DNA of 20,749 nt, from IMG/VR virus record IMGVR_UViG_2671180890_000003, one strand, 5' to 3'. The position numbers and the translations under genes were made by a program. Shown one piece after another: positions 576 to 20,749 of the stretch. Position 1 is the first letter of the stretch. Each line of letters opens with the position of its first letter. The DNA comes from a virus (lineage: Duplodnaviria > Heunggongvirae > Uroviricota > Caudoviricetes). Under the pieces are notes generated by a model. It made no database searches. It had not been told where the DNA came from and saw only the letters and a program-made list of their open reading frames with translations.

Positions 576-863
576 TTACTGTCTCTGGCAATCTTTATCG
601 CGATAACGCCTGAAGTACCCTCTCGCTTCCTCATCCATACCAAGAGCCGAATGAGTCCGCTTAACTGCCTGTCTTAAATCTCCGAATCTGTCTGTAGTTG
701 CTGGTGGGCGTGCCGCCTTACGGATACATTCAGAGCGTCTGTTTGCTGCATGTTCACGTTCTTTATCGCCATCTGCCAGCATCATGACTTCTGCCCATCG
801 TGCGGCAGCTCTCCGGTATAGCCCTTTTGACTCCAGCTCTTCAGCTTTCCTGTCCCTTATCAT
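576..863 (-). CDS. PerC-like small transcriptional activator (95 aa)
   Basis: ATG at 863 preceded by a GAGAGG Shine-Dalgarno. N-terminal KAEELESKGLYRRAAARWAEVM matches my recollection of the conserved PerC/Pch core; not searched. Confidence 0.5.
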   Translation of the reverse strand: MIRDRKAEELESKGLYRRAAARWAEVMMLADGDKEREHAANRRSECIRKAARPPATTDRFGDLRQAVKRTHSALGMDEEARGYFRRYRDKDCQRQ

Positions 864-899
864 TTCTGCCTCTCAGATTATATAGATAAGCAAAAAGGT

Positions 900-1020
900 G
901 TTGGTTCAGTTGGTTCAGTTGGTTCAATTTGTAAAGATCGTTGTTTTTATTGTGTTTTTTCTGAAATATTGAACCAACATCAACTCATTTTGAACCAACA
1001 CAGCCCAGCTCTGAACCAAC
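900..1020. repeat. Iteron cluster: GTTGGTTCA x3 in perfect tandem (900-926) plus inverted TGAACCAAC x3 at 970, 991 and 1012 (exact 21-bp phasing)
   Basis: Read directly from the sequence. Lies in the divergent intergenic region between the PerC-like gene and the plus-strand DNA-binding gene, with an AT-rich spacer between the direct and inverted sets. Confidence 0.8.
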
Positions 1021-1122
1021 AACACAGCGATAGCTTTGTGATTGGCCCGTTATTTTCTGGCTGATATTTGAGCGTATAACAGTGTTATACAGTGGTATAC
1101 TGTATGGATATTACTCACTGAT

Positions 1123-1566
1123 ATGGTCTTTGCAATGAGCAAATCTAATCTGGTCGCGTTCCGCATCCCATCTGAATTGCAGGATGAGTTTAATCGGTCT
1201 GTTCTCGCTTCTGGAGGGGATAAAACCTCCTGGCTTGTTGATGCGATTCGCATGAAGCTGGGACAGCCGGAAAAGTCTATTGATTCACGAATGCTTGGGC
1301 TGGTGGAGCGCATGGAAAAAGCCGCTGCGTCGCTTATTGCCGGAAAGCCGAACATCCCACCAAAGCCATATAACGAAACGGCAGTTATAAAGATCATTGC
1401 CGATACCATCCGACAGGGATTTGATAATGGGCGTGTGATAGCGGAACGGCTCAATGAAGCAGGCTATCAAACAAAAGCTGGTAAAGCATGGGATAAAGAC
1501 ATTTACAGCGCGTGGAAGCGTCAGGGAAGCAATGCTGAAAAGTTATCAGTGGCTCTAAGAATGTAG
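1123..1566 (+). CDS. Putative DNA-binding protein (147 aa) with ribbon-helix-helix-like N-terminus
   Basis: Only credible plus-strand gene. N-terminal LVAFRIPSELQDEF...WLVDAIRMKL fits a strand-helix-helix pattern; C-terminal LNEAGYQTKAGKAWDKDIY resembles a recombinase-type DNA-binding motif (from memory). No clear SD; start may be ATG 1135. An inverted repeat ATACAGT-5-ACTGTAT sits about 25 bp upstream. Confidence 0.5.
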   Translation: MVFAMSKSNLVAFRIPSELQDEFNRSVLASGGDKTSWLVDAIRMKLGQPEKSIDSRMLGLVERMEKAAASLIAGKPNIPPKPYNETAVIKIIADTIRQGFDNGRVIAERLNEAGYQTKAGKAWDKDIYSAWKRQGSNAEKLSVALRM

Positions 1567-1963: not shown

Positions 1964-2446
1964 TCATCGAAGCCCTAAATTCTTTAGGCGATAACGTATA
2001 GCATCATCGGATACACCAAAATAGGAAGCCATCATTACTGGTGCATATCCTGCATTGTTGAGGCGTCGAACCTCTTTTTCTGGCATGAGAAGACATGCTG
2101 CAAAGTTATTGGCGAATATTTCTTCGCTGTCTACACCTTGGCTTGCCAGTTTTCCGCGGTAATCAACAAACTCATATTCAAGTGGCTGACCGTTCTCAGT
2201 TCGTTTGACGTAATGCCCTAACTCATGCGCACACGTAAATCGTTTGCGCACGTTACTATCATTACGATTGAGTATGATTACTGGATCTTGTTCTGGCTCT
2301 TTCAGCAATGCGCCTGAAACATCATCATCAAGCGTGGTTTCAACAACATCCAACCCTAACTCATTGGCAATCCATACTGGATCAACCGGGAATTTCCTAT
2401 CGCCCCAGATATCTTTCAAGAGGGCATGTGCAGATGTATTCGACAT
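1964..2446 (-). CDS. ImmA/IrrE-family (DUF955-like) Zn-metallopeptidase, no fused HTH domain (160 aa from ATG 2446)
   Basis: HEXXH motif in RKRFTCAHELGHYV. ATG at 2446 is preceded by AAGGAGG at the right spacing; the track ORF begins 2 codons earlier at a GTG (2452). Confidence 0.7.
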   Translation of the reverse strand: MSNTSAHALLKDIWGDRKFPVDPVWIANELGLDVVETTLDDDVSGALLKEPEQDPVIILNRNDSNVRKRFTCAHELGHYVKRTENGQPLEYEFVDYRGKLASQGVDSEEIFANNFAACLLMPEKEVRRLNNAGYAPVMMASYFGVSDDAIRYRLKNLGLR

Positions 2447-2627
2447 GTTCACCTCCTTTGATTATGGTTAAATAGTCGAAATTTTCACCACTTCCCTTGT
2501 GGATATATTTACATATAAAAGGTAACTAGTCACTAACCAACACAAATCTTTTTGAAGACAGATGGGGGGTGTTGAACGGTTTTTAAATGATTTCTTTGAT
2601 TTTTAACAGCAATAAGGAGCATTTTTA

Positions 2628-4267: not shown

Positions 4268-6988
4268 CTATTCCCATTCGCTAACATCTTTCATGCCACT
4301 GAGGGTAGCTACAATCCCGGCCCTTGTCAGTTTCACGAATTCTTCAGCCCCAACGGCATCACGAATTGCTTTCATGGCAATTTTATTGGCCGAAAATCGT
4401 TTCTCTGCTGCGGCGATCGCTGCTGGTGATGCCCCTGCGCGCACTGCTTTTGTAGCTTCCTGAACGGCTTTCTCTATCGCATATCGACCACTTCTTGTCG
4501 CCCCAATCTTAGCCACAGCATTTCTTAGCGCGCCACCAGCAACCAAACCACTAATCGAACCAATTACACCACCGCCAAAGCCTCCAGCGATCGCACCTGA
4601 CTGTTGAACACCGTTCATAATCACGCCGACGATCTTTGGAAGGCCTGAATCGAGCGTTTTGAGAGCCTCAGTTGTTCTTCCCGTGCGCTCTACGTATCGC
4701 TGCGGTCTGGTACTGGCTTTAGCGAGTACACCGAACTCTTTCATCATTCTACCGAGATCTGGCGCATGACGACTGATGGCGTTTACATTCTGCTGGGTCA
4801 TGAGCTTGGCAAAATACTGGATACCTGACTCTTCACCGATTCCTCCCTTCTCTCCCTGCGCCACAGCATGCTGAAGAATAGATGCTATTGCAGGTTGGCG
4901 TTCTGCTTCCGGCAGCGCGGAGATAAGACGGTGAAAAGCTCCCGTTCCAGTGTTTGCGGATGCCTTAAGCGTATCGGCACCTTTTCTTACCATAGCGTCT
5001 GATGCGAGATCTCGACCAAAAACAGATTCGGCATTTTGTTTGGCGATAATGTAACTTTTAGAGAGATCGTTAGCTTTCTGCCATTCTGTGAGGAAGTTTC
5101 CTTTTTCAGCCATGATGCGCATGTCATCAGTGATAGCTCTGCGCATTTCTCCGGCAATCCGGGCGGCATTGGCCTTACCTGCCCGGGTGTTTGCTTGTTC
5201 AGCATCAGCAAACTTAGCACGCCATGCCTTCATCCCGTCGAAGGTTATGCCGCCACCTTGGTTGTTGGCAGCCTGAAACTGTTTCATCTCCGGGCTGAGT
5301 GGAACATTGGCTGCTTTTTCTGCTTGGACGACAGCCATTCCATTACTCATTTTCATCCTTTCGCGTGGCATCGTGCTTCGCAGTTCTGCCCATGCCATAT
5401 TCTCTGCTGTTTTCATATCACTGAGGCTCGCGATGATGCGCTCTTTAATTGCTGCGCTTTTTTCTGATGCGCTTCCAGACTCAGCACCGAAATCAGACAA
5501 CTGCTTATTCAACTTTGAGGATATTTCATTGAAGGCCGTAAGGTGAGCATCCTGAACATTCCCAGGAGTTGATGCCAGAACACCTTCTGCTTGGGCAATT
5601 CCACGACTACCTGAGCGCATTCCAGGCGTCAGGGTGTTGATATTAATACCAGTGATTTTCGCCGCCTTAGCGACATCATCTCTGACGTTTGATGCCTGCG
5701 ATGCGATATGCTCTCGGCCTACGGCAGAACGCGCTGCTTTCGATACATCATTGGCGGTTTCCAGAGTATTTGCTGCCCCTAACACATGGCCTGATTGATT
5801 TGTATTACTCCGCAATACATCTCGCATTACGTCACTGGCTGTCTGTCCGCTCTTTATTAAAGCGCGTGCTCCTAGCGATCCTGCTAGGCCAATACCTGTC
5901 TCTTTTGCTAGGTCTTCTGGGCTGATCTGCCCGTTCTTTTGGGCGTTCACCAATGTACCTGGCAGGTTTTCTGCCAACATACTAGCCACCTTTGTGGCCG
6001 CACGTTCAGCACGTGGAGCGTTGGCAACTGAAGAAGCTGCGGTAGCTGCCTTTCCTGCACCTAATCCTGTAATAAGGTAAGGTGCTAGCTGCTCACCAGC
6101 CTGCGCGTATGGATCTGTAGGTTGGTCTACTGGGCGAAAGACTGGTGATATGGGCGTGTATGTGCCATCACCCACACCAAGCTTCTGAGCTGCCCATGCT
6201 CCGGCTGATTGCGCCGCATTGACTACCCCCACGCCTGCGTCCATTACATCAAACGGTATATTAGCAATCCCTCTGGCCATCTGCTCTGGCGCAGCTTTCA
6301 GTCCTGGCGAAAGATATTCCATCTCAGGATTAAGGTTAGACTTGGCTACTTGCTGCTGCGGTTCCCCGGCATTTTCATCGGCGAGAAACTGAGCTCTTTT
6401 CTGCTCCCATGAACTGGCTGTTGGTAGTCCTGCTTCTATGTTCTTAAATTGCTGACGTTTTGCTTCCCATGCAGAAATATCTCCCACCTGAGAGATTTCT
6501 TTATCAAGCTCTGAGTAGTCAGGCTGCTGAAGATTGCGATGTTGACTGGTTTGTGCAAACTGCAAGATTTCACTGTCATCAGGGATTATTCCGGCATCTG
6601 CAAATTTACTTACGTAATTAGCCGTTTCATCTGGCAGTGTAGATTTACCGTTTCTGACGGCATTAATACGAGCATAGCCAGAATTATACCCAGCCAATGC
6701 CATACCTATATCACCAAATCGCTTCATTCCTTTATTGAGATGGTTTGCTGCGATATCCATTTGCTTTTCAAATGGCAGTGAGCGCGGATCTGTTCCACGA
6801 TAACCAGCATCACTCATTACTGAGGGCATCAGTTGAGCAAATCCTCTAGCTCCTTTCGGTGACTCGGCACTTCCGTTACCACTAGATTCATTGCCAACTA
6901 ATGTTTCCATCGTCCCTGATGGGAAACCATATTTTTCATCGAGATGACGGGAATAGGCTTTCTGTTTTTCTGTCAGTTGTGCCATCAT
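4268..6988 (-). CDS. Large virion-type protein with N-terminal SLT lytic transglycosylase domain (about 906 aa); internal-virion/ejection protein-like (T7 gp16-type architecture) or tape-measure-like
   Basis: SLT signature ES...GARGFAQLMP...AGYNSGYARI in the first ~150 aa. The remainder is Ala/Gln/Ser-rich and helical, with a Gly-rich hydrophobic C-terminus. ATG 6988 forms an ATGA overlap with the upstream stop; the track start is 6994. Confidence 0.8.
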   Translation of the reverse strand: MMAQLTEKQKAYSRHLDEKYGFPSGTMETLVGNESSGNGSAESPKGARGFAQLMPSVMSDAGYRGTDPRSLPFEKQMDIAANHLNKGMKRFGDIGMALAGYNSGYARINAVRNGKSTLPDETANYVSKFADAGIIPDDSEILQFAQTSQHRNLQQPDYSELDKEISQVGDISAWEAKRQQFKNIEAGLPTASSWEQKRAQFLADENAGEPQQQVAKSNLNPEMEYLSPGLKAAPEQMARGIANIPFDVMDAGVGVVNAAQSAGAWAAQKLGVGDGTYTPISPVFRPVDQPTDPYAQAGEQLAPYLITGLGAGKAATAASSVANAPRAERAATKVASMLAENLPGTLVNAQKNGQISPEDLAKETGIGLAGSLGARALIKSGQTASDVMRDVLRSNTNQSGHVLGAANTLETANDVSKAARSAVGREHIASQASNVRDDVAKAAKITGININTLTPGMRSGSRGIAQAEGVLASTPGNVQDAHLTAFNEISSKLNKQLSDFGAESGSASEKSAAIKERIIASLSDMKTAENMAWAELRSTMPRERMKMSNGMAVVQAEKAANVPLSPEMKQFQAANNQGGGITFDGMKAWRAKFADAEQANTRAGKANAARIAGEMRRAITDDMRIMAEKGNFLTEWQKANDLSKSYIIAKQNAESVFGRDLASDAMVRKGADTLKASANTGTGAFHRLISALPEAERQPAIASILQHAVAQGEKGGIGEESGIQYFAKLMTQQNVNAISRHAPDLGRMMKEFGVLAKASTRPQRYVERTGRTTEALKTLDSGLPKIVGVIMNGVQQSGAIAGGFGGGVIGSISGLVAGGALRNAVAKIGATRSGRYAIEKAVQEATKAVRAGASPAAIAAAEKRFSANKIAMKAIRDAVGAEEFVKLTRAGIVATLSGMKDVSEWE

Positions 6989-8304
6989 TGCCATCCCTTA
7001 AGTTTTGCCTGATAGTAACTTTCCGGCAGATAGCCATGTGCGGTCACATAATCCTTAACCAGTGAAGGATCCTGCAACAGCATTTTGGTATCAGTTTCTT
7101 CGTCCTTAGATTTGGTTACAGGAATACCGAGCCCGGCAATCTGTCGTTTCTGCATTCGAATAATTACGTCCTGCGCTTTATTCAACTCTCGCAAAAATGC
7201 CTCATTGCTGGTTGCTGACTTAATGCCATTTTGAGATTGCATAAGGGCAGCCCTTTCCCCTTCGGTTGGGTTAGAGCCAAAAGTCCCTTTGAGGCTAGGC
7301 AGAATAACCTTTAGGTTGTATTCATCAGCTTTGGCGCGTAGGCTTCGTGTGTCTTCTGCTACATCAGGAAGGAATCCAAACCCCAGCGTCAGGGGGTTAT
7401 AGTTCTGCGAGCGGGTAACGGCCGAAGGATGTTTCCCTACAATTCCCGCCAGTTCATGACCCACTTCAAGCGCAGAGTTCAAGGAGTCGATGTTACCTGC
7501 AACAGTATTAATTTTATCGTTCATCTTCTCCACTTTCGCCTGCTGTATCTTGCTCAGTTCAGCATTGAGCTTGTCTCTCTCGATGTCATTTTGAGCACGT
7601 CCAAGTCGTGCTTTCAGAACCATTTCTCTCGTGCGTAGTTGGTTATCGGATAGGACTTTGAACTGCTCCATATCGAGACGTCGATTACCCTGTTCCGCAT
7701 TAACCTGAGCATTATATGCGGATGTATCTGCGTTCTGCTGTGCAATGCTCTGCCCTTGCTGCTTCTCTTGAACACTAAAGTAACTATTTGGATCAGCATG
7801 GAGGTGGATGAGGTCAGTGATTCTGTTGAATTCCTGTGGGTCATTCTGCCAAGACTGATAAACCTCTTCAGCAGGAAGACCAAATCGCTGTAATACTGGA
7901 TTTGCCTGCTGAATGGCCTTCTGCATGGTCAGTGGATCTCCAGTTTGTGACGCAAGACGCAGATTCATGGCAGCGTCAGCGGTCTGTCGATTTTGCTCAG
8001 CATCAATGAATCCCATCTGTTTTTGAGAATCAGCCATAAACTGGGGATACTGGGCCATTAACTTCTGCACGCCAACACGATCATTATTAGCTACCGCACT
8101 ACCCAACCGTGCCTGATATTCTTTTAACTGCTGGGAAATTTGCGCCTGCTGATTAATCTCAGCAACGCCTCTTAGCCCCTGTAGCGCCATTAAACCTACG
8201 TTTGGCTGCTGCTGATACTGCACAGGCTGAGGAACGGAAGAACGAGGAGCATTATCATTTTGCGGTGCCATGCTAGGCAGCCCGCCAAGTTGCCATGTCG
8301 CCAT
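6985..8304 (-). CDS. Gln-rich coiled-coil protein (439 aa); putative virion internal protein (gp15-like position)
   Basis: Track ORF. Start overlaps the upstream stop by 1 nt (TAATG) and the stop overlaps the downstream start: a translationally coupled block. Confidence 0.7.
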   Translation of the reverse strand: MATWQLGGLPSMAPQNDNAPRSSVPQPVQYQQQPNVGLMALQGLRGVAEINQQAQISQQLKEYQARLGSAVANNDRVGVQKLMAQYPQFMADSQKQMGFIDAEQNRQTADAAMNLRLASQTGDPLTMQKAIQQANPVLQRFGLPAEEVYQSWQNDPQEFNRITDLIHLHADPNSYFSVQEKQQGQSIAQQNADTSAYNAQVNAEQGNRRLDMEQFKVLSDNQLRTREMVLKARLGRAQNDIERDKLNAELSKIQQAKVEKMNDKINTVAGNIDSLNSALEVGHELAGIVGKHPSAVTRSQNYNPLTLGFGFLPDVAEDTRSLRAKADEYNLKVILPSLKGTFGSNPTEGERAALMQSQNGIKSATSNEAFLRELNKAQDVIIRMQKRQIAGLGIPVTKSKDEETDTKMLLQDPSLVKDYVTAHGYLPESYYQAKLKGWQ

Positions 8305-8981
8305 TAGAATCCAAGCCCCCCAACAAGACCAATAAGCCCACCACCAATAGCCCCGGCGACATTACCTATACCCGGAACAACGGAACCAAGTTGCGCACCC
8401 GCTAAAGCGCCTGATGCCGCCCCACCAATACCACGCGCAAGACTGGATGGCTGCTGCGCCTGACCTGCACGAATAGCGCCAAGCCCCTGCAAGAGTTGCC
8501 CGGTATTATTGGCGTAGTTTTGCCCTGCTGTTGCCTGCCCTGATGCCGCATTCATCCCGACATTTAGCAGGTTTCCATAATTTTGCATTTGCCCACTGAG
8601 CCAATTGTTATAAAGCATGGGCGCAATGGAAGATAACTGGTTACTGGTAGCTGTTGAGCCAAGCCCCCCGGTAGCTTCTGCTGAGACAAGGTTCTGATAA
8701 CGGGCCTGATCTGCCTGTGTTTTATATAAACCAGAACCAAAGAAATCATTCGCGGCTTTATTCTGCCCTTCCAGAGTCATCAGCCCTTGCAGTTGTTGTA
8801 AAGCAGGCAATCCGACTTCTGCATACGGCTTGAGATTATTCATCACCGTATTCCACTGCTCGCGCTGCAAATCAATTGCCTGCTGCTGGGCCTTCGCCTG
8901 AGCTTTAGAGGCACCACCATCACCGCCTTTTTCGTATACGGCACGATTGAGATGTTTATGAGCTATATGGGTAATTAACAT
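8304..8981 (-). CDS. Gly/Gln-rich protein (225 aa) with hydrophobic Gly-rich C-terminus GGLIGLVGGLGF; putative membrane-inserting virion protein (gp14-like position)
   Basis: Track ORF, coupled to its neighbours; composition suggests membrane association. Confidence 0.65.
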   Translation of the reverse strand: MLITHIAHKHLNRAVYEKGGDGGASKAQAKAQQQAIDLQREQWNTVMNNLKPYAEVGLPALQQLQGLMTLEGQNKAANDFFGSGLYKTQADQARYQNLVSAEATGGLGSTATSNQLSSIAPMLYNNWLSGQMQNYGNLLNVGMNAASGQATAGQNYANNTGQLLQGLGAIRAGQAQQPSSLARGIGGAASGALAGAQLGSVVPGIGNVAGAIGGGLIGLVGGLGF

Positions 8982-9436
8982 TCGCTGAATTCCTTATATT
9001 GTTGCCGAGTTAACTGATAAAGCGTTACGCCGACGGGTTTACCACATCTGATATAAGCATCATCAAGGTGACCAACACGGGTAGCGCCAAGCAAACGGAT
9101 AATTGCCCGTCCGTATTTCGTGGTGTCAGGAACCATAGTGATGCTATTAAGGAATGGTGAGTTTTCGAGAAGCCATTTGCAGAATAATCGATGCCCTTGC
9201 AGTGCATATTCGCCACGGAATCCGGGGTCGTACACCGCATGGCATTCAACAACGCTATGCCAGAAGTTACGCACTTCATGAACGCCAGCCAGCACCAATC
9301 CTTCGTAGATGCCGAGATATACCGCATCAGGCTTGATGTAGTACGTGTGCCCCGGCTCAACAATATTTTCGGTATTGGCAGGCTCGTTAAGAAAGGCCTG
9401 TAATCGCACCGGGTTATCAATAAATTTTAGTTCCAT
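8975..9436 (-). CDS. Hypothetical protein (153 aa), first gene of the ejection-like block (gp13-like position)
   Basis: Track ORF with ATG start; overlaps the downstream gene by 7 nt. No family recognised. Confidence 0.6.
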   Translation of the reverse strand: MELKFIDNPVRLQAFLNEPANTENIVEPGHTYYIKPDAVYLGIYEGLVLAGVHEVRNFWHSVVECHAVYDPGFRGEYALQGHRLFCKWLLENSPFLNSITMVPDTTKYGRAIIRLLGATRVGHLDDAYIRCGKPVGVTLYQLTRQQYKEFSEC

Positions 9437-9781: not shown

Positions 9782-10108
9782 CTAAAAACTATATTTATGG
9801 TATCGCATTACTCTTCACGGCAGGCGCTTTTCAGTTCTGCCCTTGCTTCTGGCTCCATTGGTAATTTGATTCGCGATCAGCTATGCGGATGGTTTGCTGA
9901 ACAGGCATAACAACATCTCAGAGGCTATTTTTTGAACTACGAAAATTTCGTAGGTCTCTCCTTCAAAAACGTCACGCCCTTGTACACTGGATTTTACAAA
10001 AGTCTCGTAAAACTCTTTCCTGTTCTGGGCTATGTGCCAAACCGCAGCGAATACCTCCGTCTGCCAGATGAGCAAAACATACCTTATAAAGAAAATCGCT
10101 GTTTTTGC

Positions 10109-10210
10109 TGTACCACCTGTACCACCATGTCACAAACCCTTGTGTGGCGCGGCCTGTAGGTGGTACAGGTGGGTAAAAATGACCTCTCCCCACCTGTACA
10201 GACCTGTACC
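10109..10210. repeat. Iteron cluster built on CCTGTAC/GTACAGG (TGTACCACC x2 tandem at 10109-10126; GGTGGTACAGGT at 10159-10170; CCTGTACAGACCTGTACC at 10193-10210)
   Basis: Read directly from the sequence; the same 12-mer family occurs in the 11230-11335 cluster. Candidate ori/crr-type binding sites for the adjacent primase. Confidence 0.75.
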
Positions 10211-10216
10211 ATTTAT

Positions 10217-10954
10217 TTAATTTTTACCCATAGCAGCACATAATCCCTTTTTTGAAATATTGAAAAATGCGTTCATTCTTCCCGCTGGCTTAACCTTGTA
10301 GCCGCTTGCCACCATCGCCGCAATAAATGCTCCGTTGGGGATATAGTGCGGGTGATCACTGTGCTGGTGGTTTATCTGGTTATATCGCTCCACTTCATGC
10401 TTCAACGTGTCAGATGTGGGGTTATCCTGCGGGAAGCTCTCAATCTGGGCATTACTCATCCCGTTGTCTCTGATCCATCTCAGGCAGCTTTTCGCCGATA
10501 CGATAAATGACGGGTTATCAAGCGGGTTTTCCCAGTCCGCATTCCGGTTGTGGAGCGCCAGTCCGTCAAGGTTAAATTGTGGGTATTCAGCGGTAATTAC
10601 TGTCACTGCGTGGCGGATTTCAGTCTCGTCACAACATGGCTCATCTCCCACACCAGCAGGGTAATAATCTGAACCACCGGGACTGATACAGCGTTTACCA
10701 CTGAAAGGCCATTGCTTCGCCATTTCGGGTGTTGAGTGATTACCGTCGCTCCGTTCGCGCTGTGCCTCTGTCCACTGGCTGGCATATTCAGTAAATGAAA
10801 CCCTTTGCCCCTGGCGCATCCAGTGCGCAATCATAATTAAAGTGCGTTCCAGACTTTGGATGTCGCCAGCATTCCCGCACTGTGTAGCGAAACTTTTTAA
10901 TTCTTCGCGCTCCGTTCTGGTCATTCCCTGCGGTATGCAATAGTTATTGTTCAT
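10217..10954 (-). CDS. Hypothetical Cys/His-rich protein (245 aa)
   Basis: Track ORF. ATG 10954 forms an ATGA overlap with the upstream gene; GAGAGG SD. No family recognised. Confidence 0.6.
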   Translation of the reverse strand: MNNNYCIPQGMTRTEREELKSFATQCGNAGDIQSLERTLIMIAHWMRQGQRVSFTEYASQWTEAQRERSDGNHSTPEMAKQWPFSGKRCISPGGSDYYPAGVGDEPCCDETEIRHAVTVITAEYPQFNLDGLALHNRNADWENPLDNPSFIVSAKSCLRWIRDNGMSNAQIESFPQDNPTSDTLKHEVERYNQINHQHSDHPHYIPNGAFIAAMVASGYKVKPAGRMNAFFNISKKGLCAAMGKN

Positions 10955-11187
10955 GTTTTACCTCTCTGTTTTACCTCTCTGATTTCTGCTGCCATATCTG
11001 TTGGCTCTATACAGCCGTCCCGACTTGCCACGCAGGGAATAATGATTTCAACGGTATCGCCGTCAATACACATTTCAACATTCGCCCATGCCGCAATGGG
11101 TAGCCAGTCTGAACGCCCCTCAAACCGTAGCTGCCAGCCAGAGGAAGAAGCTAACTGGCGCACTTTGTAAAATGGTGTGCTCATCAT
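10951..11187 (-). CDS. Hypothetical small protein (78 aa)
   Basis: ATG 11187 preceded by GAGAGGGAA SD. The 3' end contains a 13-bp tandem duplication (10955-10980) that also duplicates the SD of the next gene. Confidence 0.5.
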   Translation of the reverse strand: MMSTPFYKVRQLASSSGWQLRFEGRSDWLPIAAWANVEMCIDGDTVEIIIPCVASRDGCIEPTDMAAEIREVKQRGKT

Positions 11188-11229
11188 TGGTTGTTCCCTC
11201 TCAGCCAGCCAGAAGAAATGCGTTTGTTA

Positions 11230-11335
11230 ATGGTATAGGTGGTACAGGTCTGGTATAGGTAAGATATTGACCTGTACCACTATAACGCACTGTTTTTAAT
11301 ACTGAATTAGCAAAATGGTATAGGTGGTACAGGTA
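11230..11335. repeat. Iteron cluster: 19-mer TGGTATAGGTGGTACAGGT x2 (11231-11249, 11316-11334), half-copy TGGTATAGGT (11251-11260) and inverted CCTGTACCAC (11271-11280)
   Basis: Read directly from the sequence; sits in the 177-bp gap immediately downstream of the primase-helicase stop. Candidate replication origin. Confidence 0.8.
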
Positions 11336-11363
11336 AAAACGTTCTTCTTGTAAAAAGACTATA

Positions 11364-13718
11364 TTAAAAAACATCATAACCCCCCATACCGATCAGACGT
11401 GCAAACGCAGCCTGTAGAACTCCGACCTCTGGTAGTTCGTAGAACACGCCATTCCCACGGTCTGGTCTTCCATGCTTCACCAGTCCCATTTGTGCAAGTG
11501 ATTTACCCAGTAGTGATCTGGCTGCTGGTTCTTTAAGCTTTTCCCCACGCTCAAGCGACCACGCTACAAATCGACTAACCATATCCTTTGCAAACAAACG
11601 GACTTCGCCATTAAACGGAGGTTCATTGATTAGCTCGCCATAAAGAAACAATTCAACGCCAGACAGCCCCAGCAAGATTTCTTCACGTAAGGCATCGGTC
11701 TGTGGCGCTCGTTGAGGGTCAAAACCTGAGAGATCCACCCCTTTAAGATGCCAAAGCAACTTTGCGGCACCGCCATCATTAAGCCAACTGTACAGCCGAT
11801 CAAAATACTCCCGGCTCTGTGCTTTTTCAGGAGATGGCTCAAGCACGAGATAGCGGCGCTCTCTTATCCCTGCCTGTAATACCTGTGTGCTGTTACTGGC
11901 AAATATCAACCGGGCAAAATTCGGCATTGGTTCAGCATCAATTCCCTTGCGCTCAAGGTTAAACGTCGGTTCGCTAATAATCGCTTTAAGTCTGTCAGCT
12001 TCAGACGGCTTGTGGATCGTCACTTCGTCAGCAAATACCAGTAGCTTGTTAGCAAGTATTGAATTGAAGCGCCCTGAAATATGTCCCGCCCCGTTAATGT
12101 GGGCGGCGTACTGCCCCAGTATTTGCAGCAGCGGTTTAACCGTTGTGCCTTTCCCTGTGCCCGGGACAGATTTCATCACGATTGCCACGGACGGTTTTTC
12201 ATCAGGCTTTTGGATAATGTGCGCCATCCACTGGATAAGATATTGGTATGCCTCTTCATTACCGGCACAGACAACCTGCAACAGGTGATTAAGGTATACC
12301 GTGCAATCTCCTTCAATTGGTTCCAGTGCCAGCCCCTCATACAGATTAAAAACATCGTCAGGGCATTTGTCTGGTACTGGATAAAATCCTACGCCTCCTG
12401 GCTTGTAGTTCTTCCCACTCCATGACAGCCACGCCGATCCCGCCAGCTTTCTGGCGACTCTCGGTTTATGATGAAAATAATGCTGAAATTGTGATAAATC
12501 CTCGAAAACGTGCGATACACCGCCGGTTTGAGAAGGCTTTAGCGACACCACCTTGTGTTTCCCGCCGATGGTGACATGCGTAAACGTCCGGTTGATTTCT
12601 TTGAGGACAGCAATTTCATCATCGCTTAACACCTCGCCAGAACTGATCTCATTCAGCGCCCCGACTGACTGTTTGTGATTTTTCACCTGCGCCCCTTTCC
12701 CCCGTGGCTGGTACATCGAATCTTTAAATGCTGCTGTGGCTGCCGCCAGCCCGTGTTGTTGGTGATAGTCGTTCCAGTCGGCTTTATAGTCAGTCGGTGG
12801 CAGAGACACCCAGCCAGCTACGGAAATAGCGGCCCTCTCTGCGGCATCTTTCCCCGTGTTGATCCCTCCACTTTCGGAGTTTCCTTGCTGGTGATCGTTA
12901 TCTGCGGCAATGATGATTTGTGCCTGTGGATATGTTCTGCGCATGACTTCCGCTACTGGCAACAGGTTGCCAGCGTCGATTGCTGCCACTGTCATTGCGT
13001 CAGGGCGAATTAAATGGCACGACAGGGCGGTAGCCACCCCCTCAGCAATTATGATGCTGTGAGGTCGTTTCTGTGCGTTTATGGCGTGATATGCCCCCCG
13101 CTTTGCTGAACCTGTCAGGAGTCTTTTTTCACCATGTGAGGTAATTGTCTGTGCTGCTGTGACTGCGCCGGATTTATCCACCAGCGCCAGCAACAGAGAT
13201 CCATCGGGCAACACGGGGAATGTAAAATCACCTACCCCTTTCGCAACCAGATAATCAGATTTGCCGTTTACAGCCTTTCTGCGCATGTCATCAAACTGAC
13301 GGGAAAACGTATCCCGTCTTTGTTGTTCGTCCTTCTCTGCCCTTTTCAGGCGCTCCTGTTCGCGTCGCTGGCGCTCGGTTTCCAGTTGTTCCCGTTTCTG
13401 GCTGGTGGCTTCTGGTGTTTCCGTTGTCCGGTAATCAATACCCAGAACATCAGCGGCAAGCAGCGCCGCCTCTGTTGTGTCGCAGTTATTTACGCGTTTA
13501 ATTAAATCCAGCCCATCACCAGCGCCGCACTGATTACAGATGAAGCTACCGCGCCCGTTGTCATCGAACCGGAATCGATCTTTGCCCCCACATGCAGGGC
13601 AGGGAGCATGACGGCGCGGAGAGTCAGGGACATTTATGTTCAGGCAGCCCAGCACATGAGGCCAGTTGTTTTCAGACGCACTGATAACCTGACGGATAAG
13701 ATCAATGTTTCGCATCAC
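11364..13718 (-). CDS. P4 alpha-type primase-helicase (784 aa): Zn-ribbon, TOPRIM primase, SF3-like helicase
   Basis: CPACGG...CNQCG zinc ribbon; TOPRIM-like IIIAEGVATA and IIIAADNDHQQ; Walker A VPGTGKGTT and Walker B LLVFADEV. Confidence 0.85.
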   Translation of the reverse strand: MMRNIDLIRQVISASENNWPHVLGCLNINVPDSPRRHAPCPACGGKDRFRFDDNGRGSFICNQCGAGDGLDLIKRVNNCDTTEAALLAADVLGIDYRTTETPEATSQKREQLETERQRREQERLKRAEKDEQQRRDTFSRQFDDMRRKAVNGKSDYLVAKGVGDFTFPVLPDGSLLLALVDKSGAVTAAQTITSHGEKRLLTGSAKRGAYHAINAQKRPHSIIIAEGVATALSCHLIRPDAMTVAAIDAGNLLPVAEVMRRTYPQAQIIIAADNDHQQGNSESGGINTGKDAAERAAISVAGWVSLPPTDYKADWNDYHQQHGLAAATAAFKDSMYQPRGKGAQVKNHKQSVGALNEISSGEVLSDDEIAVLKEINRTFTHVTIGGKHKVVSLKPSQTGGVSHVFEDLSQFQHYFHHKPRVARKLAGSAWLSWSGKNYKPGGVGFYPVPDKCPDDVFNLYEGLALEPIEGDCTVYLNHLLQVVCAGNEEAYQYLIQWMAHIIQKPDEKPSVAIVMKSVPGTGKGTTVKPLLQILGQYAAHINGAGHISGRFNSILANKLLVFADEVTIHKPSEADRLKAIISEPTFNLERKGIDAEPMPNFARLIFASNSTQVLQAGIRERRYLVLEPSPEKAQSREYFDRLYSWLNDGGAAKLLWHLKGVDLSGFDPQRAPQTDALREEILLGLSGVELFLYGELINEPPFNGEVRLFAKDMVSRFVAWSLERGEKLKEPAARSLLGKSLAQMGLVKHGRPDRGNGVFYELPEVGVLQAAFARLIGMGGYDVF

Positions 13719-15494: not shown

Positions 15495-15685
15495 TTTTCA
15501 CCCCCAAGAATTACCAGCTCGGCACGGGCATCGTTAACCAAAGATGAGCACGCTTTAATCGCATCCACGACATCAGCAGCGTCCATTTCTTCAGCCGAAA
15601 GACTGACAGCAACCAGGACAGCCGCTGCTTGCTCGATTAATTGAAGTGCGGACGTAAGGCGAGGGGTATTAATTGAGTTATTCAT
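15491..15685 (-). CDS. Hypothetical small protein (64 aa from ATG 15685)
   Basis: Internal ATG with GGGGG SD and 8-nt overlap with the upstream stop; the track ORF extends to 15742. Confidence 0.4.
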   Translation of the reverse strand: MNNSINTPRLTSALQLIEQAAAVLVAVSLSAEEMDAADVVDAIKACSSLVNDARAELVILGGEK

Positions 15686-15896
15686 TGGTTGCCCCCGTTT
15701 TGCATGGCATTTCGCCACCTTCCAGCAGGAAATGAACGTCACGAACGGCGAGATCCAATATCGCGAGTAACGCCTTCAGTCTTTCGTCTCGTGAGGGAGA
15801 GTTGCTCACCAGAATGTCGTTAATCACTTCTGTCAGTGTGATGATCTGGCTTGTGCGTTCGAGGGGGTCCATATGCACATCGTAGGTTTTAATCAT
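15678..15896 (-). CDS. Hypothetical small protein (72 aa, MIKTYDVHMDPLERT...)
   Basis: ATG 15896 preceded by GGAGGTGG SD. It is the C-terminal part of the 355-aa track ORF, which I interpret as a run-on frame. Confidence 0.5.
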   Translation of the reverse strand: MIKTYDVHMDPLERTSQIITLTEVINDILVSNSPSRDERLKALLAILDLAVRDVHFLLEGGEMPCKTGATNE

Positions 15897-16083
15897 GTGC
15901 CACCTCCATGCGGATACGACCAGCAAAAAAGCAGACGTGATCGCGCACCAGAGAACGGCGAGCATCGCGTTCAGACTCGGCAGCAATATGATGAATTTTG
16001 GCGGTAATTGTCGGGCAATCGCGGCGAACTGCGGCGATAATCCAGATAAATTGCGGTTTTTGGGTAGGGGTAGTAGCCAGCAT
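15889..16083 (-). CDS. Hypothetical small protein (64 aa), first gene after the candidate promoter
   Basis: ATG 16083 preceded by AAGGAGG SD. The region is GC-rich with open frames on several strands, so coding status is uncertain. Confidence 0.35.
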   Translation of the reverse strand: MLATTPTQKPQFIWIIAAVRRDCPTITAKIHHIAAESERDARRSLVRDHVCFFAGRIRMEVAHD

Positions 16084-16231
16084 GTGGCAGCCTCCTTGTA
16101 CTGGGAATTCTTCCCACCACCGGAGCTGCGAAACTCGCTGGTGGTGGACTGAACAGAGTTCGCAGTACCGGCGTACAAGGAAACCGGCCAGCCTTTCGGC
16201 TGCCCTGTCCAGCCCACCATAATTTTGCAAG

Positions 16232-16270
16232 CGACGCGGATTATAACCACATCACTGAAAAAAGTGTGAG
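16232..16270 (-). promoter_or_regulatory. Candidate sigma70-type promoter for the small-gene/primase operon (perfect TATAAT -10, weak -35, T-rich upstream)
   Basis: Minus strand reads CTCACACTTTTTTCAGTGATGTGGTTATAAT immediately downstream of the 16286-16307 terminator. No strong -35. Confidence 0.25.
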
Positions 16271-16285
16271 TCTGGCTAACGGCAC

Positions 16286-16307
16286 AAAAAAAGACGCTCG
16301 GCGCGTC
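16286..16307 (-). terminator. Intrinsic terminator for minus-strand transcripts: GACGC-tcggc-GCGTC hairpin followed by T7
   Basis: Plus strand A7 at 16286-16292 then hairpin 16293-16307; the stem is only 5 bp. Separates the regulatory operon from the primase operon. Confidence 0.5.
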
Positions 16308-16310
16308 ATG

Positions 16311-16745
16311 TGTCGCCTCGTACATTTCCGGGCTGCGAAACCCGGCACCCGTTTTATGAGGTGCCTTATAACCATAAACCGTGTTGCCGCATAACGGCAA
16401 GCTCTTTTTTATGGACTCCGAAAACTCACTATTGGAAGAACCAGAAGCACAGTACATCGCGCTCATTTCGTTAACGTCACGCGCGTGGACGAATGTTTTT
16501 GTGGAGTCACTACACGAGCGGAAGACATCATCTACGACCAGAAATTTTCTGGCGCAGCCGCTGACCTTCTCAATGCTAATATCATCGCCCGAGATTTCTG
16601 GTATGGTTAAGGCATCCGTTCCGACCACCAGCAAATGATAAACTTTGCTTGTATCTGCTGTATTAATGCCTGACTTTGCCGTCATATTTCTGGATTTTGG
16701 CGACATGCCAGCCAGTGAAAATGTCTTCTTCTGGACGGGTATCAT
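16311..16745 (-). CDS. ORF of unknown function with a strong start but unresolved 3' end (possible frameshifted or fused gene)
   Basis: ATG 16745 has a GGAGG SD and an ATGA overlap with the upstream gene. The frame has no stop until 15678 and runs through a terminator hairpin and a promoter-like region; the end coordinate is nominal. Confidence 0.3.
16384..16417. repeat. Copy B of hairpin + T6 + ATGGACT element (TTGCCG-cataa-CGGCAA, T-run 16405-16410, ATGGACT 16411-16417)
   Basis: Shares the 14-mer TTTTTTATGGACTC with copy A. On the plus strand it resembles an intrinsic terminator; it lies inside the minus-strand ORF that starts at 16745. Confidence 0.5.
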
Positions 16746-16921
16746 TGGTTAACCTCCGCGAACTCCTTCATGAAACGCGCCAGCGGTTGTACGCATGGCG
16801 ATTGATACCCGTCGCGATAAAACCTCACTCGGTTGTGAGACACGCTTTCGACAGTAACGAGTGCTCCGTGGGCATCTTTGTAGCGTTTTTGTGGTTGTGG
16901 TGTTCCTGTTGGCTTAGACAT
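16742..16921 (-). CDS. Hypothetical small protein (59 aa from ATG 16921)
   Basis: GGAGG SD and 8-nt overlap with the antirepressor-like gene stop; the track ORF extends to 17008. Confidence 0.5.
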   Translation of the reverse strand: MSKPTGTPQPQKRYKDAHGALVTVESVSHNRVRFYRDGYQSPCVQPLARFMKEFAEVNQ

Positions 16922-17747
16922 TGAGCGCCTCCAGACGCTTGGCGAGCCAGCGTTGCGACAGGCGGGTGAGTTCTCCTTTGCGCTGCTCATATTCCATGCC
17001 CATATCAATTAACGTGATATTGGTGCTTTCGAGATATGAGAGGTGCTCAAGCTGTTCTGCGTTCATATGGTCGCGAGGTTCGCCAGAATAGCCATTTATC
17101 CGCGCCCACTGCTTAGCAGTTAGCCCTCCAAGAACGATACGAGAAATCATATTGCTCTCGTTTGTGTAGTGGTGTTGCTGCGTCGTTTTCCCCTGCTCGG
17201 CACGGGCCATATTCAGCGCATCGCACATTGGCTTAAAGTTGTTTGCGGCACTGATACGGGCTTTTAGCTGGCGACGATAGCGGGCGGCGATTTCAGGCAC
17301 GCTACGCTGTAATTCTTCCTCGCACTGGATGAAATAACGACGGATAGCGCGACCCTGATCATTGCGTTCGATCATTGCCAGTTCTTTCGCCATTCCGACA
17401 CTTAACAGATAGTCTTTGCCGGGTCTGCCAGACTGCTTAATCTTGCTGTAAGCCGCGCCATTCGGGCTTTTCCCCAAATTTGGGGAAATAGTTTTATGGA
17501 CTGAGTAATCGTGCCCAATGGTGAAGTCATATTCAGAGATGCGATCAGTGATCCATGTAGAGAAGTCTTTTCCCACGCCCAACGCTTTGTGTAACGCTTT
17601 TGCGCTAACAATATTGGTTTCACGCCCACCGATATGACCAGGAATAACCGGGACAATTGCGGCAAATTCATTACCGTTAATTGTGCTCAGAGAGGCGTTC
17701 AGATGAGGGGCGGCCTCAGAAATTAATCTGCTTTTTTCGATGTTCAT
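16914..17747 (-). CDS. Phage antirepressor-like regulatory protein (277 aa)
   Basis: GGAG SD upstream of ATG 17747. The N-terminal region (NGNEFAAIVPVIPGH...SAKALHKALGV) resembles Bro-N/KilA-N type antirepressor domains; from memory, not searched. Confidence 0.55.
   Translation of the reverse strand: MNIEKSRLISEAAPHLNASLSTINGNEFAAIVPVIPGHIGGRETNIVSAKALHKALGVGKDFSTWITDRISEYDFTIGHDYSVHKTISPNLGKSPNGAAYSKIKQSGRPGKDYLLSVGMAKELAMIERNDQGRAIRRYFIQCEEELQRSVPEIAARYRRQLKARISAANNFKPMCDALNMARAEQGKTTQQHHYTNESNMISRIVLGGLTAKQWARINGYSGEPRDHMNAEQLEHLSYLESTNITLIDMGMEYEQRKGELTRLSQRWLAKRLEALNV
17472..17502. repeat. Copy C of hairpin + T-run + ATGGACT element (CCCCAAATTTGGGG palindrome 17472-17485, TTTTATGGACT 17492-17502)
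   Basis: Read directly from the sequence. Lies inside the antirepressor-like coding region, in a different reading frame from copy B, so conservation is at the nucleotide level. Confidence 0.5.
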
Positions 17748-17759
17748 TTTCAGTCTCCG

Positions 17760-18191
17760 TTAAGCGGCGTTAAACGCGTCCGGGTAGAGTTTCAGAATGT
17801 CGGCAATTTCCTGCTGAGAAAGTCCGTTGTGATCATTTATGTTCGCAAGATGGTTAATATGAGTGATCACTTTCAGAACATCACCACGGCAGGAGAAACG
17901 GTAGCGAAGGTGTGTTCCGATACCATCAGGATTCTTTTCGTCGATACGCTCCAGAGTGATTCCAAGCTGGCGTTCTAACTCTGTTGCATAGTTACGACCA
18001 GAAGACAGACGGCAGTAGCGAAGAATGTCGTTTTCTGTCCATCCCTCTATACCAGTACGCAGCATATAGACTCGGGCACGATGCTTTTTCGGTGTGCGCT
18101 TTGGTGCTTGAAGGGATTTTGTAAGGGGCGTAATATCAGATACGCGAATATCTGAATTAGCCGCCTGTAATGGGCGGTTTTTCTTTTCCAT
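17760..18191 (-). CDS. Hypothetical basic protein (143 aa)
   Basis: Track ORF; start overlaps the AlpA-like stop by 1 nt. No family recognised. Confidence 0.55.
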   Translation of the reverse strand: MEKKNRPLQAANSDIRVSDITPLTKSLQAPKRTPKKHRARVYMLRTGIEGWTENDILRYCRLSSGRNYATELERQLGITLERIDEKNPDGIGTHLRYRFSCRGDVLKVITHINHLANINDHNGLSQQEIADILKLYPDAFNAA

Positions 18192-18409
18192 CAGGCCACC
18201 TTCCCGCGGCGTTCTGCCAGCCAGTTATTAATTTCCACCGCATCAAACGCAGTCACGTTATCTGTTAGCTTCACTGGGCGTGGAAGAGTGCCATTTTTAA
18301 CCCATCTATCAATAGTAGGCAGTGAAACACCTAGCAATTCCGGCATGCGAAAGCGACGGATGTATCCAGTTGTTGGGATAGCTGATGATGCTGGCTTGTG
18401 TGCTGTCAT
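18191..18409 (-). CDS. alpA: AlpA-family prophage transcriptional regulator / excisionase-like HTH protein
   Basis: RFRMPELLGVSLPTIDRWVKNGTLPRPVKL...WLAERR matches the AlpA pattern. ATG 18409 chosen for a plausible SD; the track ORF extends to 18478. Confidence 0.7.
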   Translation of the reverse strand: MTAHKPASSAIPTTGYIRRFRMPELLGVSLPTIDRWVKNGTLPRPVKLTDNVTAFDAVEINNWLAERRGKVA

Positions 18410-18514
18410 ATGTCCTGTAACTCCTGTGATAGCTGTTGAAGTTACGGTAATCATGTGAGCAGGGGGATTAGATGTCATCGCAACGAAAAATGGATTTTCG
18501 TTGCGAAATTATCT

Positions 18515-19396: not shown

Positions 19397-19489
19397 AGCG
19401 TAACCTTTCGCGCTGCCTTAAAGAGTGACCGGAACAGGCGGTAAGGCTTTCCGCTTTTCGCCCCGTCGGGCTAGTTCCGGTCTGTTCGG

Positions 19490-20749
19490 TTACTTTGCCT
19501 TTCTGATAGGCGTCACGTTGTAATCTTCGCCCTTCTCCAGAGCCACCAGCAAGCCCGCCCACTGTGTTAACGCAGCCCGGCGCTCGTCAAAGTATTGGTG
19601 ACGGTTATAGATACCCTCAACGCCTTTTATGCGGTGATTGAGGCATCTTTCAGCCACTACCGGATCAACGCCCAGCGCTGCTAAATGAGTACGTGCGGTG
19701 CGTCGGAAGTCGTGAATCGTGAAATTAGGCACATCCGGCATTTCGGCGCGAACCTTAGCCAGTGCTACGGGTAAAGTGCTTTCCTGAATATGTGGGATCA
19801 TTCTGTTTTGCATTTTCCTGGCTGGAAGCACCCATGCGCTATTACATGAAAAGGCGTGAAGCTCTCTCAACCATTCAACGGCTGGGGAAGGTAGAGGTAT
19901 ATCAATAGGGTCTCCGTTTTTGCTGCGTTCTTCCGGCAAATGCCATACCGCACCATCTAAATCAAACTCTTCCCATCGTGCGGCGCATAACTCCATCTTA
20001 CGAACGCATAGTGCCAGCAATAGCTTAAATGTCAGTTCGTTCTGGCGGCTGAATCCTTTTGCGGTGCGCATAGCCTCGAATAGCCTGATAAGCTCATCGC
20101 GAGTTAGCCAACGGTCGCGGGAAACCTCTTTACCACCAGCATCAGATACTTCAAACGCTGAACAAGGGTTTATCTCCAGAGCGTGGCGTTTTATTCCATA
20201 GTCAAAGATACGGCGTGTCCAGCGTAATACATCTGTTGCTATCGTTGGTGCTCCTCGGTCAACGATACCTTTCAACATGTCGTCAATGTGGCGTGGCTTA
20301 ACGTCCTCTACCTTCATATGCCCAATGCAGGGGTTAATATCCTTATCAATTCTCCGGCGAAGGATATCGGGATGTTTCCATCTCGGAAGTATCTGGCGCT
20401 CGAAGTATTCGGAGGCCAGATCTGAAACACGCATGGCGTTTTTCTCAGTCTCCATTTTTGCCAGTGCTTCAGCTTTTCGTTCCTGTTTCTCTGCTGCTAC
20501 GTCATAGCCAAGAGCAACTCTGGCTGACAGCTCTTTTGCTGTTTCTCTGGCTTTTGATAGTGACAGTTCGGAGTAAGAGCCTATAACCATAGCCCGCTGC
20601 TTTCCTGCGAGCTTATAGCGGAATCGCCAGAACGGGACTGTGTAGTTTTTGGGGTAGCAAATATAAAGGCCGTTGCCGTCTGCCTTGCCATCAAATCTGT
20701 CTCCCGCCTTTATCCATGCGCGGATCTGCATATCTGTGAGTTTTGGCAT
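19490..20749 (-). CDS. int: P4/CP4-57-family tyrosine integrase (419 aa)
   Basis: C-terminal catalytic motifs HDFRRTARTH (HxxR) and a conserved Tyr in GIYNRHQY; N-terminal region typical of P4-type integrases. The start codon is at the last base of the window. Confidence 0.9.
   Translation of the reverse strand: MPKLTDMQIRAWIKAGDRFDGKADGNGLYICYPKNYTVPFWRFRYKLAGKQRAMVIGSYSELSLSKARETAKELSARVALGYDVAAEKQERKAEALAKMETEKNAMRVSDLASEYFERQILPRWKHPDILRRRIDKDINPCIGHMKVEDVKPRHIDDMLKGIVDRGAPTIATDVLRWTRRIFDYGIKRHALEINPCSAFEVSDAGGKEVSRDRWLTRDELIRLFEAMRTAKGFSRQNELTFKLLLALCVRKMELCAARWEEFDLDGAVWHLPEERSKNGDPIDIPLPSPAVEWLRELHAFSCNSAWVLPARKMQNRMIPHIQESTLPVALAKVRAEMPDVPNFTIHDFRRTARTHLAALGVDPVVAERCLNHRIKGVEGIYNRHQYFDERRAALTQWAGLLVALEKGEDYNVTPIRKAK

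Follow-up and report, generated by a model that had tools for sequence, protein, structure and literature searches.

An iteron array beside perC in an Escherichia coli phage-inducible chromosomal island: a probable satellite origin unit parted from its initiator

What purpose is served by six 9-bp repeats lying between a perC-family gene and a gene for a 147-residue protein in a satellite island? The question is raised by IMG/VR record IMGVR_UViG_2671180890_000003, a 20,749-bp stretch of DNA referred to here as the window, which is a complete integrated EcCIMP1-like phage-inducible chromosomal island (PICI) of Escherichia coli, situated between dinD and yicC. A first-pass annotation of this DNA had proposed that the array could be either an operator for the two flanking genes or a second origin-like site. 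The comparisons described below favour the origin. With a probability of roughly 0.75, the array is a complete origin unit of the type known from Staphylococcus aureus pathogenicity islands (SaPIs) and PICIs, rather than an operator; its cognate DUF927 initiator has been replaced in this island, and the unit is orphaned and predicted to be inactive. The array displays the layout of a SaPI/PICI unit, and its homologs in related islands lie directly behind a Rep gene whose product carries a C-terminal motif that covaries with the iteron.

The iteron GTTGGTTCA is present in exactly six exact copies in the window, all located within positions 900 to 1,020 (Table 1), in agreement with the three direct and three inverted 9-mers noted at first pass. 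The tandem triple is perfect, comprising 3.0 copies of the 9-nt unit as defined by Tandem Repeats Finder. The exact 21-bp spacing originally attributed to the array holds for the inverted copies, while the direct copies are 9 bp apart; the suggestion that sites 21 bp apart face the same side of the helix is geometrically sound, and the spaced copies of relatives follow one another at 11 or 21 bp. Enclosed by the two sets is a 43-bp spacer (79% A+T) whose stability falls within the lowest 0.55% of the 40-nt stretches of the window. In dinucleotide-preserving shuffles, GTTGGTTCA displayed a mean of 0.22 copies and a maximum of 2, never reaching six, and the phased arrangement TGAACCAAC-N12-TGAACCAAC-N12-TGAACCAAC, which has one occurrence in the window, was found in 0 of 100 shuffles. 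The tandem iterons are preceded by a conserved left flank, and similar sequence precedes them in four related loci (L004, L016, L020 and L023; loci are numbered here with the prefix L), beside unrelated genes. By-eye inspection identified a 7/9 DnaA-like match in this flank; no convincing LexA box (sought because the island adjoins dinD), IHF site or DnaA box was recognised by eye in 864-1122. A sigma-70 promoter scan of 500-1700 returned no site on either strand, and the array matched no RNA family in Rfam. The array is real, departs from chance expectation and has been kept under evolutionary constraint.

SaPI Reps are self-loading helicases that recognise iterons through a C-terminal winged helix, and SaPI origins comprise 6-12 iterons located immediately after rep, around an AT-rich centre, with two or more iterons per side in opposite directions, one hexamer being accommodated on each side (PMC9371898). 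The window array displays the same organisation, with two opposed sets, three iterons on the plus strand and three on the minus strand, flanking the A+T-rich spacer. A field just after the rep stop codon, in the relatives of the window, and a self-loading helicase initiator with a C-terminal winged helix are further features shared with SaPI/PICI origins such as those of SaPIbov1 and SaPI1 (PMC9371898, PMC6092414). Major differences involve iteron length, as SaPI iterons are 5-6-mers and those of the window 9-mers, and location, since the window array lies beside perC, ~10.3 kb from the rep stop (11364), and the cognate Rep is absent from the window. Tests of Rep-dependent replication or binding are restricted to SaPIs and the PICI EcCICFT073 (PMC9371898, PMC6092414). 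Inspection of the tested EcCICFT073 origin region revealed that it also begins and ends with tandem 9-mers; this island differs in its Rep, which is of the DUF5906/D5_N/Pox_D5 type, and in its iterons. The iteron strings were not found in the supplementary text of PMC6092414.

In contrast to the window, homologous units occupy the canonical position in the relatives. A DUF927 alignment scan using one genome per species provided 80 loci with 39-100% protein identity, to which four E. coli loci were added (84 in total). The geometry of the field was established with the 72 loci that contain at least four repeat copies within 420 nt after the rep stop. In these, the median distance from the rep stop to the start of the iteron field is 26 nt (interquartile range 24-27), and the median copy number is 9. 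The first switch in orientation presents a median start-to-start gap of 53 nt with a spacer of median 79% A+T, and a tandem set closes the field. The offsets, at ~25/34/43, 97/108/129, 172/193/215 and 259/268/277, are conserved whatever the iteron sequence. A rep-adjacent position was thus observed in 72 relatives, as well as for the second unit of L001 and L003. Two contigs, L008 (labelled Chryseobacterium sp.) and L055 (Pseudomonas lundensis), contain islands of enterobacterial DUF927 type, with 85% and 61% identity to the E. coli Rep, respectively, and their labels may reflect assembly contamination or mislabelling.

Iteron sequence and Rep C-terminus vary together in the surveyed loci. The most frequent iteron type is TGAACCAAC (41 loci), followed by TGAGACAAC and TGAACCGAC (8 loci each) and at least a dozen rarer types. 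All 39 aligned proteins of type A, namely those associated with GTTGGTTCA/TGAACCAAC sites, display the motif G[YF]Q[RQ]KSPR[IV], and other iterons are accompanied by other motifs. Reps of the TGAGACAAC type present QGRV-RE or QGKTPRL, and those of the TGAACCGAC type mostly TRK[ST]LRI, with the exception of L036, whose QRKTPRI is one residue away from the type-A motif. When successive 40-residue segments were compared, the last two segments analysed were the best predictors of iteron type (area under the curve of 0.87-0.89, against 0.59-0.81 elsewhere); this comparison, like that of motifs and iterons, ignores phylogenetic kinship. The strongest part of the covariation argument is provided by two natural experiments. 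Between L011 (type A) and L015 (type B), identity is 94.9% in the region upstream of the motif and only 52.6% in its 19 residues, and the iterons of the two loci differ. Conversely, L054 (Morganella, type A) shares 58.9% identity with L003 upstream of the motif and 89.5% within it, and the two loci have the same iterons.

The DUF927 primase-helicase is a relative of the self-loading helicases SaPI Rep and Cch, the latter from the staphylococcal cassette chromosome mec (SCCmec). Its DUF927 half matches a "Pathogenicity island protein" (PDB code 8tch; E 1.4e-11) and the SCCmec Cch helicase (PDB code 5dgk). An AlphaFold model of the last 217 residues of the DUF927 Rep (predicted local distance difference test, pLDDT, 86.7) matches Cch with a probability of 1.0 and TcpK, a winged-helix protein that binds oriT, with a probability of 0.97. 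In this model the covarying motif forms the β-hairpin ahead of the last strand, which corresponds to the wing. In the related islands GTTGGTTCA would represent the cognate site of the DUF927 Rep, read through the G[YF]Q[RQ]KSPR[IV] wing. If the parallel with SaPI Reps holds, each iteron set would be occupied by one helicase hexamer and the intervening spacer would melt.

The remote position of the array finds an explanation in the sister islands of E. coli. In L001 and L003 the iterons are organised in two units, of which the proximal starts 26 nt after the rep stop and the other is located ~8 kb away beside perC, with accessory and ejection-protein genes lying between both units. The perC-side array of L001 is 100% identical to the window over positions 500-1700, and window 893-1002 aligns in inverted orientation with the proximal unit of L001 (78.5% identity). 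The two-unit arrangement was observed in L001, L003, L020, L023 and L037, and inverted units, either split (up to ~9 kb apart) or contiguous, are found in Escherichia, Rosenbergiella, Chimaeribacter, Serratia and Lonsdalea. The separation of the two inverted units of the sister islands by ~8 kb of accessory genes is a difference from SaPI/PICI origins. Other islands contain a continuous field of ~300 bp directly 3' of the DUF927 gene, with 12 exact copies in L004, whose island lies inside a prophage, and 10 exact copies in L005, a capsid-encoding island at fis. The origin of the sister islands would thus consist of two inverted units, one rep-proximal and one on the perC side, and the array lies far from rep because the origin of this lineage comprises two inverted units with cargo genes between them.

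BLAST searches with the intergenic region also recovered variants in which similarity ends exactly at the end of the array, with other genes beyond. Between the window array and one such variant (L138/L002), none of the 54 iteron positions differ, against 29 of the 67 other positions (Fisher p 1.7e-9); within the inverted set, iterons and spacing are the same and 15 of the 24 bases between iterons differ. Judged from this comparison of sequences, the iterons are under selection. In otherwise similar arrays the tandem set varies from 2 to 4 copies (two in L132, four in L100 and L116), which fits slippage. Three GTTGGTTCA fields were located within ~6 kb in L026 (Yersinia pekkanenii), at -4555 to +1498 from the rep stop, and may be due to islands arranged in tandem or nested in one another.

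No protein encoded in the window displays the type-A recognition motif, and the cognate winged-helix initiator found in the sister islands is absent. The resident Pri-Rep combines a zinc ribbon and a Toprim domain with a DUF5906 (P4-alpha-like) helicase and lacks both the DUF927 C-terminal domain and the QRKSPRI motif. Its zinc-ribbon/Toprim half matches L003. In blastn comparisons, window 10020-12693 takes the place of L003 28442-30370, a segment that spans the proximal GTTGGTTCA unit and the DUF927 helicase/C-terminal half. A single cassette was exchanged, made up of the helicase and origin-binding half with the origin next to it, and the zinc-ribbon/Toprim half was retained. At least 118 genomes of E. 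coli contain the cassette of the window; when viral contigs were searched with the DUF5906 half, only three copies were recovered, all identical. A second iteron, TGGTAYAGGT, accompanies it, with 9 copies in the window against 0.05 expected. Six of these start ~30 nt after the resident rep stop, and three, of sequence TGGTACAGGT, form a second cluster beyond a 245-residue open reading frame (ORF), ~1 kb from the first. These clusters are likely to be the working origin of the island, which would also be split. A 13-bp unit, TGTTTTACCTCTC, is repeated perfectly in tandem (2.5 copies) at the start of the 245-residue ORF (10954-10985).

Recombination inside rep, near positions 10020 and 12693, swapped the DUF927 half and the proximal unit for a DUF5906 half with its TGGTAYAGGT iterons, and the perC-side array would thereby have been stranded. 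As the window proteins contain no matching motif, the unit has most likely lost its activity, save where another island provides a type-A DUF927 Rep in trans. Several points weigh against this interpretation. No binding or replication experiment was found in the literature for GTTGGTTCA or for an enterobacterial DUF927 Rep, and we infer recognition of the iterons by this Rep from covariation and homology to SaPI Reps. The specificity of the resident DUF5906 Rep for TGGTAYAGGT is likewise putative. The array is intact and identical to those of DUF927 islands, which implies that the swap was recent, and its inactivity is a prediction. Four split loci, each from a different genus (L001, L016, L020 and L023), have a distal unit that abuts a homolog of the 147-residue protein gene, and since all four carry type-A iterons, a second binder may, as far as covariation goes, act at the distal unit. 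Finally, the tandem iterons are placed 37-63 bp ahead of the perC ATG, and the array may affect perC transcription.

Array integrity was compared in E. coli islands chosen by their rep cassette, eight of each type. Among the DUF5906 islands, six exact iterons were found in two (the window and L088), one copy was lost or mutated in two (L089 and L132), a 107-bp deletion left two iterons in three (L090, L133 and L134), and in one (L135) the array was gone with the whole left island end. Six of the DUF927 islands contained six exact iterons, and in two (L003 and L137) five iterons were exact and the sixth had a single mismatch; no deletions were observed. The 107-bp deletion is identical in L090 (4757-4920), L133 (4061-4224) and L134 (3085-3248), takes out the tandem set, the spacer and one iteron of the inverted set, and was seen at two attachment sites (yicC-dinD and thrW), always in islands of DUF5906 type. 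This erosion is suggestive and fits a relaxed constraint after the swap; weighing against it, the difference in integrity between the two Rep types is not significant (Fisher p 0.077 and 0.13), and the sampled islands are related, three of them sharing one deletion.

An orphaned unit could still be put to use by a partner. A co-resident or incoming type-A DUF927 Rep might fire the unit in trans, or the unit might act as a decoy that titrates this Rep against a competing satellite, much as cloned iterons interfere in plasmid incompatibility. The array of the window is fully intact, the combination of a DUF5906 rep and the array also occurs on IMG/VR contigs, and type-A DUF927 islands are common in E. 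coli, where they occupy thrW, yicC-dinD and fis and the interior of prophages. In BLAST searches with the intergenic region, genomes with any copy of the array region held it in a median of 2 places and up to 6. The fate of the array in DUF5906 islands points the other way, as six of the eight have lost at least one iteron, and the disappearance of spacer and tandem set in four of the eight argues against strong selection for keeping the unit. In addition, some genomes of window type (H42, H50-52 and H58) present a single place with the array sequence. We consider a role in trans or as a decoy improbable. A broader proposal that starts from a dual origin in enterobacterial DUF927 islands is also unlikely, if not quite so doubtful: the stranded distal unit might persist as a functional cis site that is replicated in trans by a co-resident type-A satellite, titrates its Rep in a form of satellite-satellite incompatibility, or couples perC expression to the presence of a Rep.

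The operator proposed at first pass would require the 147-residue protein, PerC or both to bind the iterons and control the divergent perC and 147-residue protein promoters. Such a role is suggested by the placement of the array between both genes, by the short distance between the tandem set and the perC ATG and by the homologs of the 147-residue protein abutting the distal unit in the four split loci. Among ribbon-helix-helix (RHH) proteins, those of the type of omega, ParG and CopG recognise clusters of short repeats in both direct and inverted orientation, and the repeats bound by omega of pSM19035, ParG, CopG and Arc/Mnt resemble the window array in lying by a small RHH-like gene. The assignment of the neighbouring gene to the PerC family was borne out by Pfam. 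The RHH-like nature of the 147-residue protein found no such confirmation, since no Pfam, NCBIfam or solved-structure (PDB) match was obtained, the only hit being a weak match to phrog_30270, and its single-sequence AlphaFold model (pLDDT 44.8) is too poor for use. The distribution of both elements also speaks against the operator. Six homologs of the protein (61-66% identity; L021, L036, L054, L057, L074 and L075) have no iteron array upstream, so that repeat and regulator do not co-occur across relatives. All homologs found, with or without an array nearby, retain instead a repeat pair (GTATAACA/GTTATACA or GTCTTAC twice) that overlaps a -10-like GGTATAAT/GGTAAAAT; the corresponding direct repeats of the window (1074-1100) are probably the gene's own autoregulatory operator, overlapping the -10. 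The type of this operator (GTATAACA or GTCTTAC) varies independently of iteron type, and iteron sequence covaries with the C-terminus of Rep. The window-type array thus tracks the Rep C-terminus, in contrast with RHH arrays, and not a small gene that has repeats of its own.

Gene order leads to the same conclusion. Most arrays lie directly behind rep with neither perC nor the 147-residue protein gene adjoining; perC flanks an iteron unit in a minority of loci, in some of which it accompanies the proximal instead of the distal unit. In L003 and L138 the array is present and the 147-residue protein gene is replaced by a different gene, and the two flanking ORFs survive the natural 107-bp deletions. 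When viral contigs were searched for the array, 41 loci were identified, each with the array directly after a DUF927 gene or beside perC or the 147-residue protein gene, and wherever the contigs were long enough a DUF927 gene was found on the same contig. An operator for the flanking genes is therefore very improbable.

The least probable of these alternatives, and a very unlikely one, is an active second origin, where the resident DUF5906 Pri-Rep or a host initiator would also use the GTTGGTTCA unit. Its model is satellite P4, whose GenBank annotation places two cis iteron clusters, with repeats in both orientations, at crr, directly 3' of alpha, and at ori, 4.5 kb away and upstream of the alpha operon. 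P4 thus resembles the two-unit arrangement of L001, L003, L020, L023 and L037 and sets a precedent for separated iteron sites in satellites. It also shares with the window island a zinc-ribbon/Toprim primase, Ash, the C4/isrK RNAs and an AlpA/Vis-type regulator, and the resident TGGTAYAGGT iterons themselves form two clusters ~1 kb apart. The differences are more telling. Both P4 sites contain the same repeat, an octamer annotated as type 1 repeat, and are bound by the resident protein alpha, a helicase of DUF5906/D5/Pox_D5 and not of DUF927 type; such binding by the resident protein is not expected in the window. There a single GTTGGTTCA cluster exists, its sequence is unrelated to TGGTAYAGGT, and the resident Rep has no DUF927 C-terminal domain. 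Most of the sampled DUF5906 islands, moreover, have the unit in eroded form or have lost it by deletion.

Origins of theta plasmids such as pSC101, R6K, F and P1 carry repeats phased at ~21-22 bp by an A+T-rich unwinding element, and extra copies of their iterons can act in trans as incompatibility or control elements. The window array shares with them helically phased repeats beside an A+T-rich element. Theta-plasmid iterons differ in being 17-22 bp long and mostly of one orientation, and in working with a Rep_3-type initiator that recruits DnaA and DnaB. This contrasts with the 9-bp sites of the window array, which form two sets of opposite orientation and go with a helicase that serves as initiator; no Rep_3-type gene was detected by Pfam among the 20 window ORFs scanned. 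A plasmid replicon feature was also rejected by BLAST of 500-1700 against phages and plasmids, which returned marginal or chromosomal-type matches only, and a partition site (centromere) was dismissed on the same grounds as the operator, together with the lack of a ParA/ParM-type gene among the 20 ORFs scanned with Pfam.

Table 1. Features of the 20,749-bp window (strand: +, - or., unstranded).
Feature	Position	Strand	Basis or remark
perC-family gene	576-863	-	Pfam PF06069, E 2.6e-33
Conserved left flank of the origin unit, TATAGATAAGCAAAAAGGT-like	880-899	.	similar sequence in relatives
Three head-to-tail iterons GTTGGTTCA	900-908, 909-917, 918-926	+	exact matches, 9-bp spacing
A+T-rich spacer, candidate DNA-melting region	927-969	.	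43 bp, 79% A+T
Three inverted iterons GTTGGTTCA	970-978, 991-999, 1012-1020	-	21-bp phasing, pointing towards spacer
Direct repeats GTATAACA-GT-GTTATACA-GT-GGTATACT before 147-residue protein gene	1074-1100	+	period 10 (Tandem Repeats Finder)
Gene for 147-residue protein	1123-1566	+	RHH-like by eye, fold unconfirmed
ImmA	1964-2452		
P22-like ejection-protein genes	4268-9436		
Replacement cassette, DUF5906 helicase half with own iterons	10020-12693	.	blastn breakpoints against L001 and L003; protein alignment; Pfam
Three TGGTACAGGT iterons, second cluster	10108-10211	.	beyond 245-residue ORF, ~1 kb from first
Six TGGTAYAGGT iterons, candidate resident origin	11231-11334	.	start ~30 nt after resident rep stop
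Resident Pri-Rep primase-helicase: zinc ribbon, Toprim, DUF5906 (P4-alpha-like) helicase	11364-13718	-	Pfam, protein alignment
Ash	15678-16745		
C4 antisense RNA	16137-16224	-	Rfam, above gathering score
isrK RNA	16287-16364	-	Rfam, above gathering score
AntA	16914-17747		
AlpA	18191-18478		
int-alpA RNA	19415-19481	-	Rfam, above gathering score
Integrase (int)	19490-20749		

The remaining features of the window are those of its island type (Table 1). The 1.2-kb region containing the array was recovered from 556 E. coli records, nearly all chromosomal, and yicC-dinD is listed as a PICI attachment site in the supplement of PMC6092414. The layout of the relative located at thrW (L003) agrees with the one published for the PICI EcCIMP1, which the P22-like phage Kapi1 mobilises (PMC11773190); no origin or iterons are described for EcCIMP1 in that report. 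Four genes for P22-like ejection or internal virion proteins, including a 908-residue DNA-transfer protein with a transglycosylase N-terminus, are carried by the window, a satellite without capsid or terminase genes, in the layout of EcCIMP1, whose helper is Kapi1. P4-type RNA immunity elements are situated in the Ash gene region of this PICI-like island. The slot between the 147-residue protein gene and the ejection genes (1583-2452) is variable in comparison with L090, L134, L136, L139 and L003. It contains ImmA/IrrE and a 125-residue protein in the window, with no adjoining Xre-type partner, and an Abi-family protein or a 319-residue protein in other islands, and it looks like a cargo or defence hotspot.

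The kind of origin described here is already known from SaPIs and PICIs; its remote, orphaned position is what is unusual. For the window itself the outcome is modest, as the array appears to be an ordinary origin unit in the wrong company and no new regulatory device. For Gram-negative PICIs, mapped origins are so far confined to a figure covering a few islands, and a single one, that of EcCICFT073, has been tested. On the basis of sequence comparison, the present analysis assigns a putative iteron, GTTGGTTCA, and a putative QRKSPRI wing motif to a widespread branch of DUF927 satellite replicases, and its table of more than a dozen natural motif-iteron pairs renders the specificity code directly testable by swaps of a few residues. 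It further suggests that origins can split into two inverted units around cargo genes and that exchange of a replicase module can strand one of these units. The split arrangement, the orphaning and the motif-iteron table might be useful to specialists in satellites. They bear on satellite recombination, on possible cross-replication or exclusion between satellites, and on the annotation of repeat arrays beside virulence regulators such as perC.

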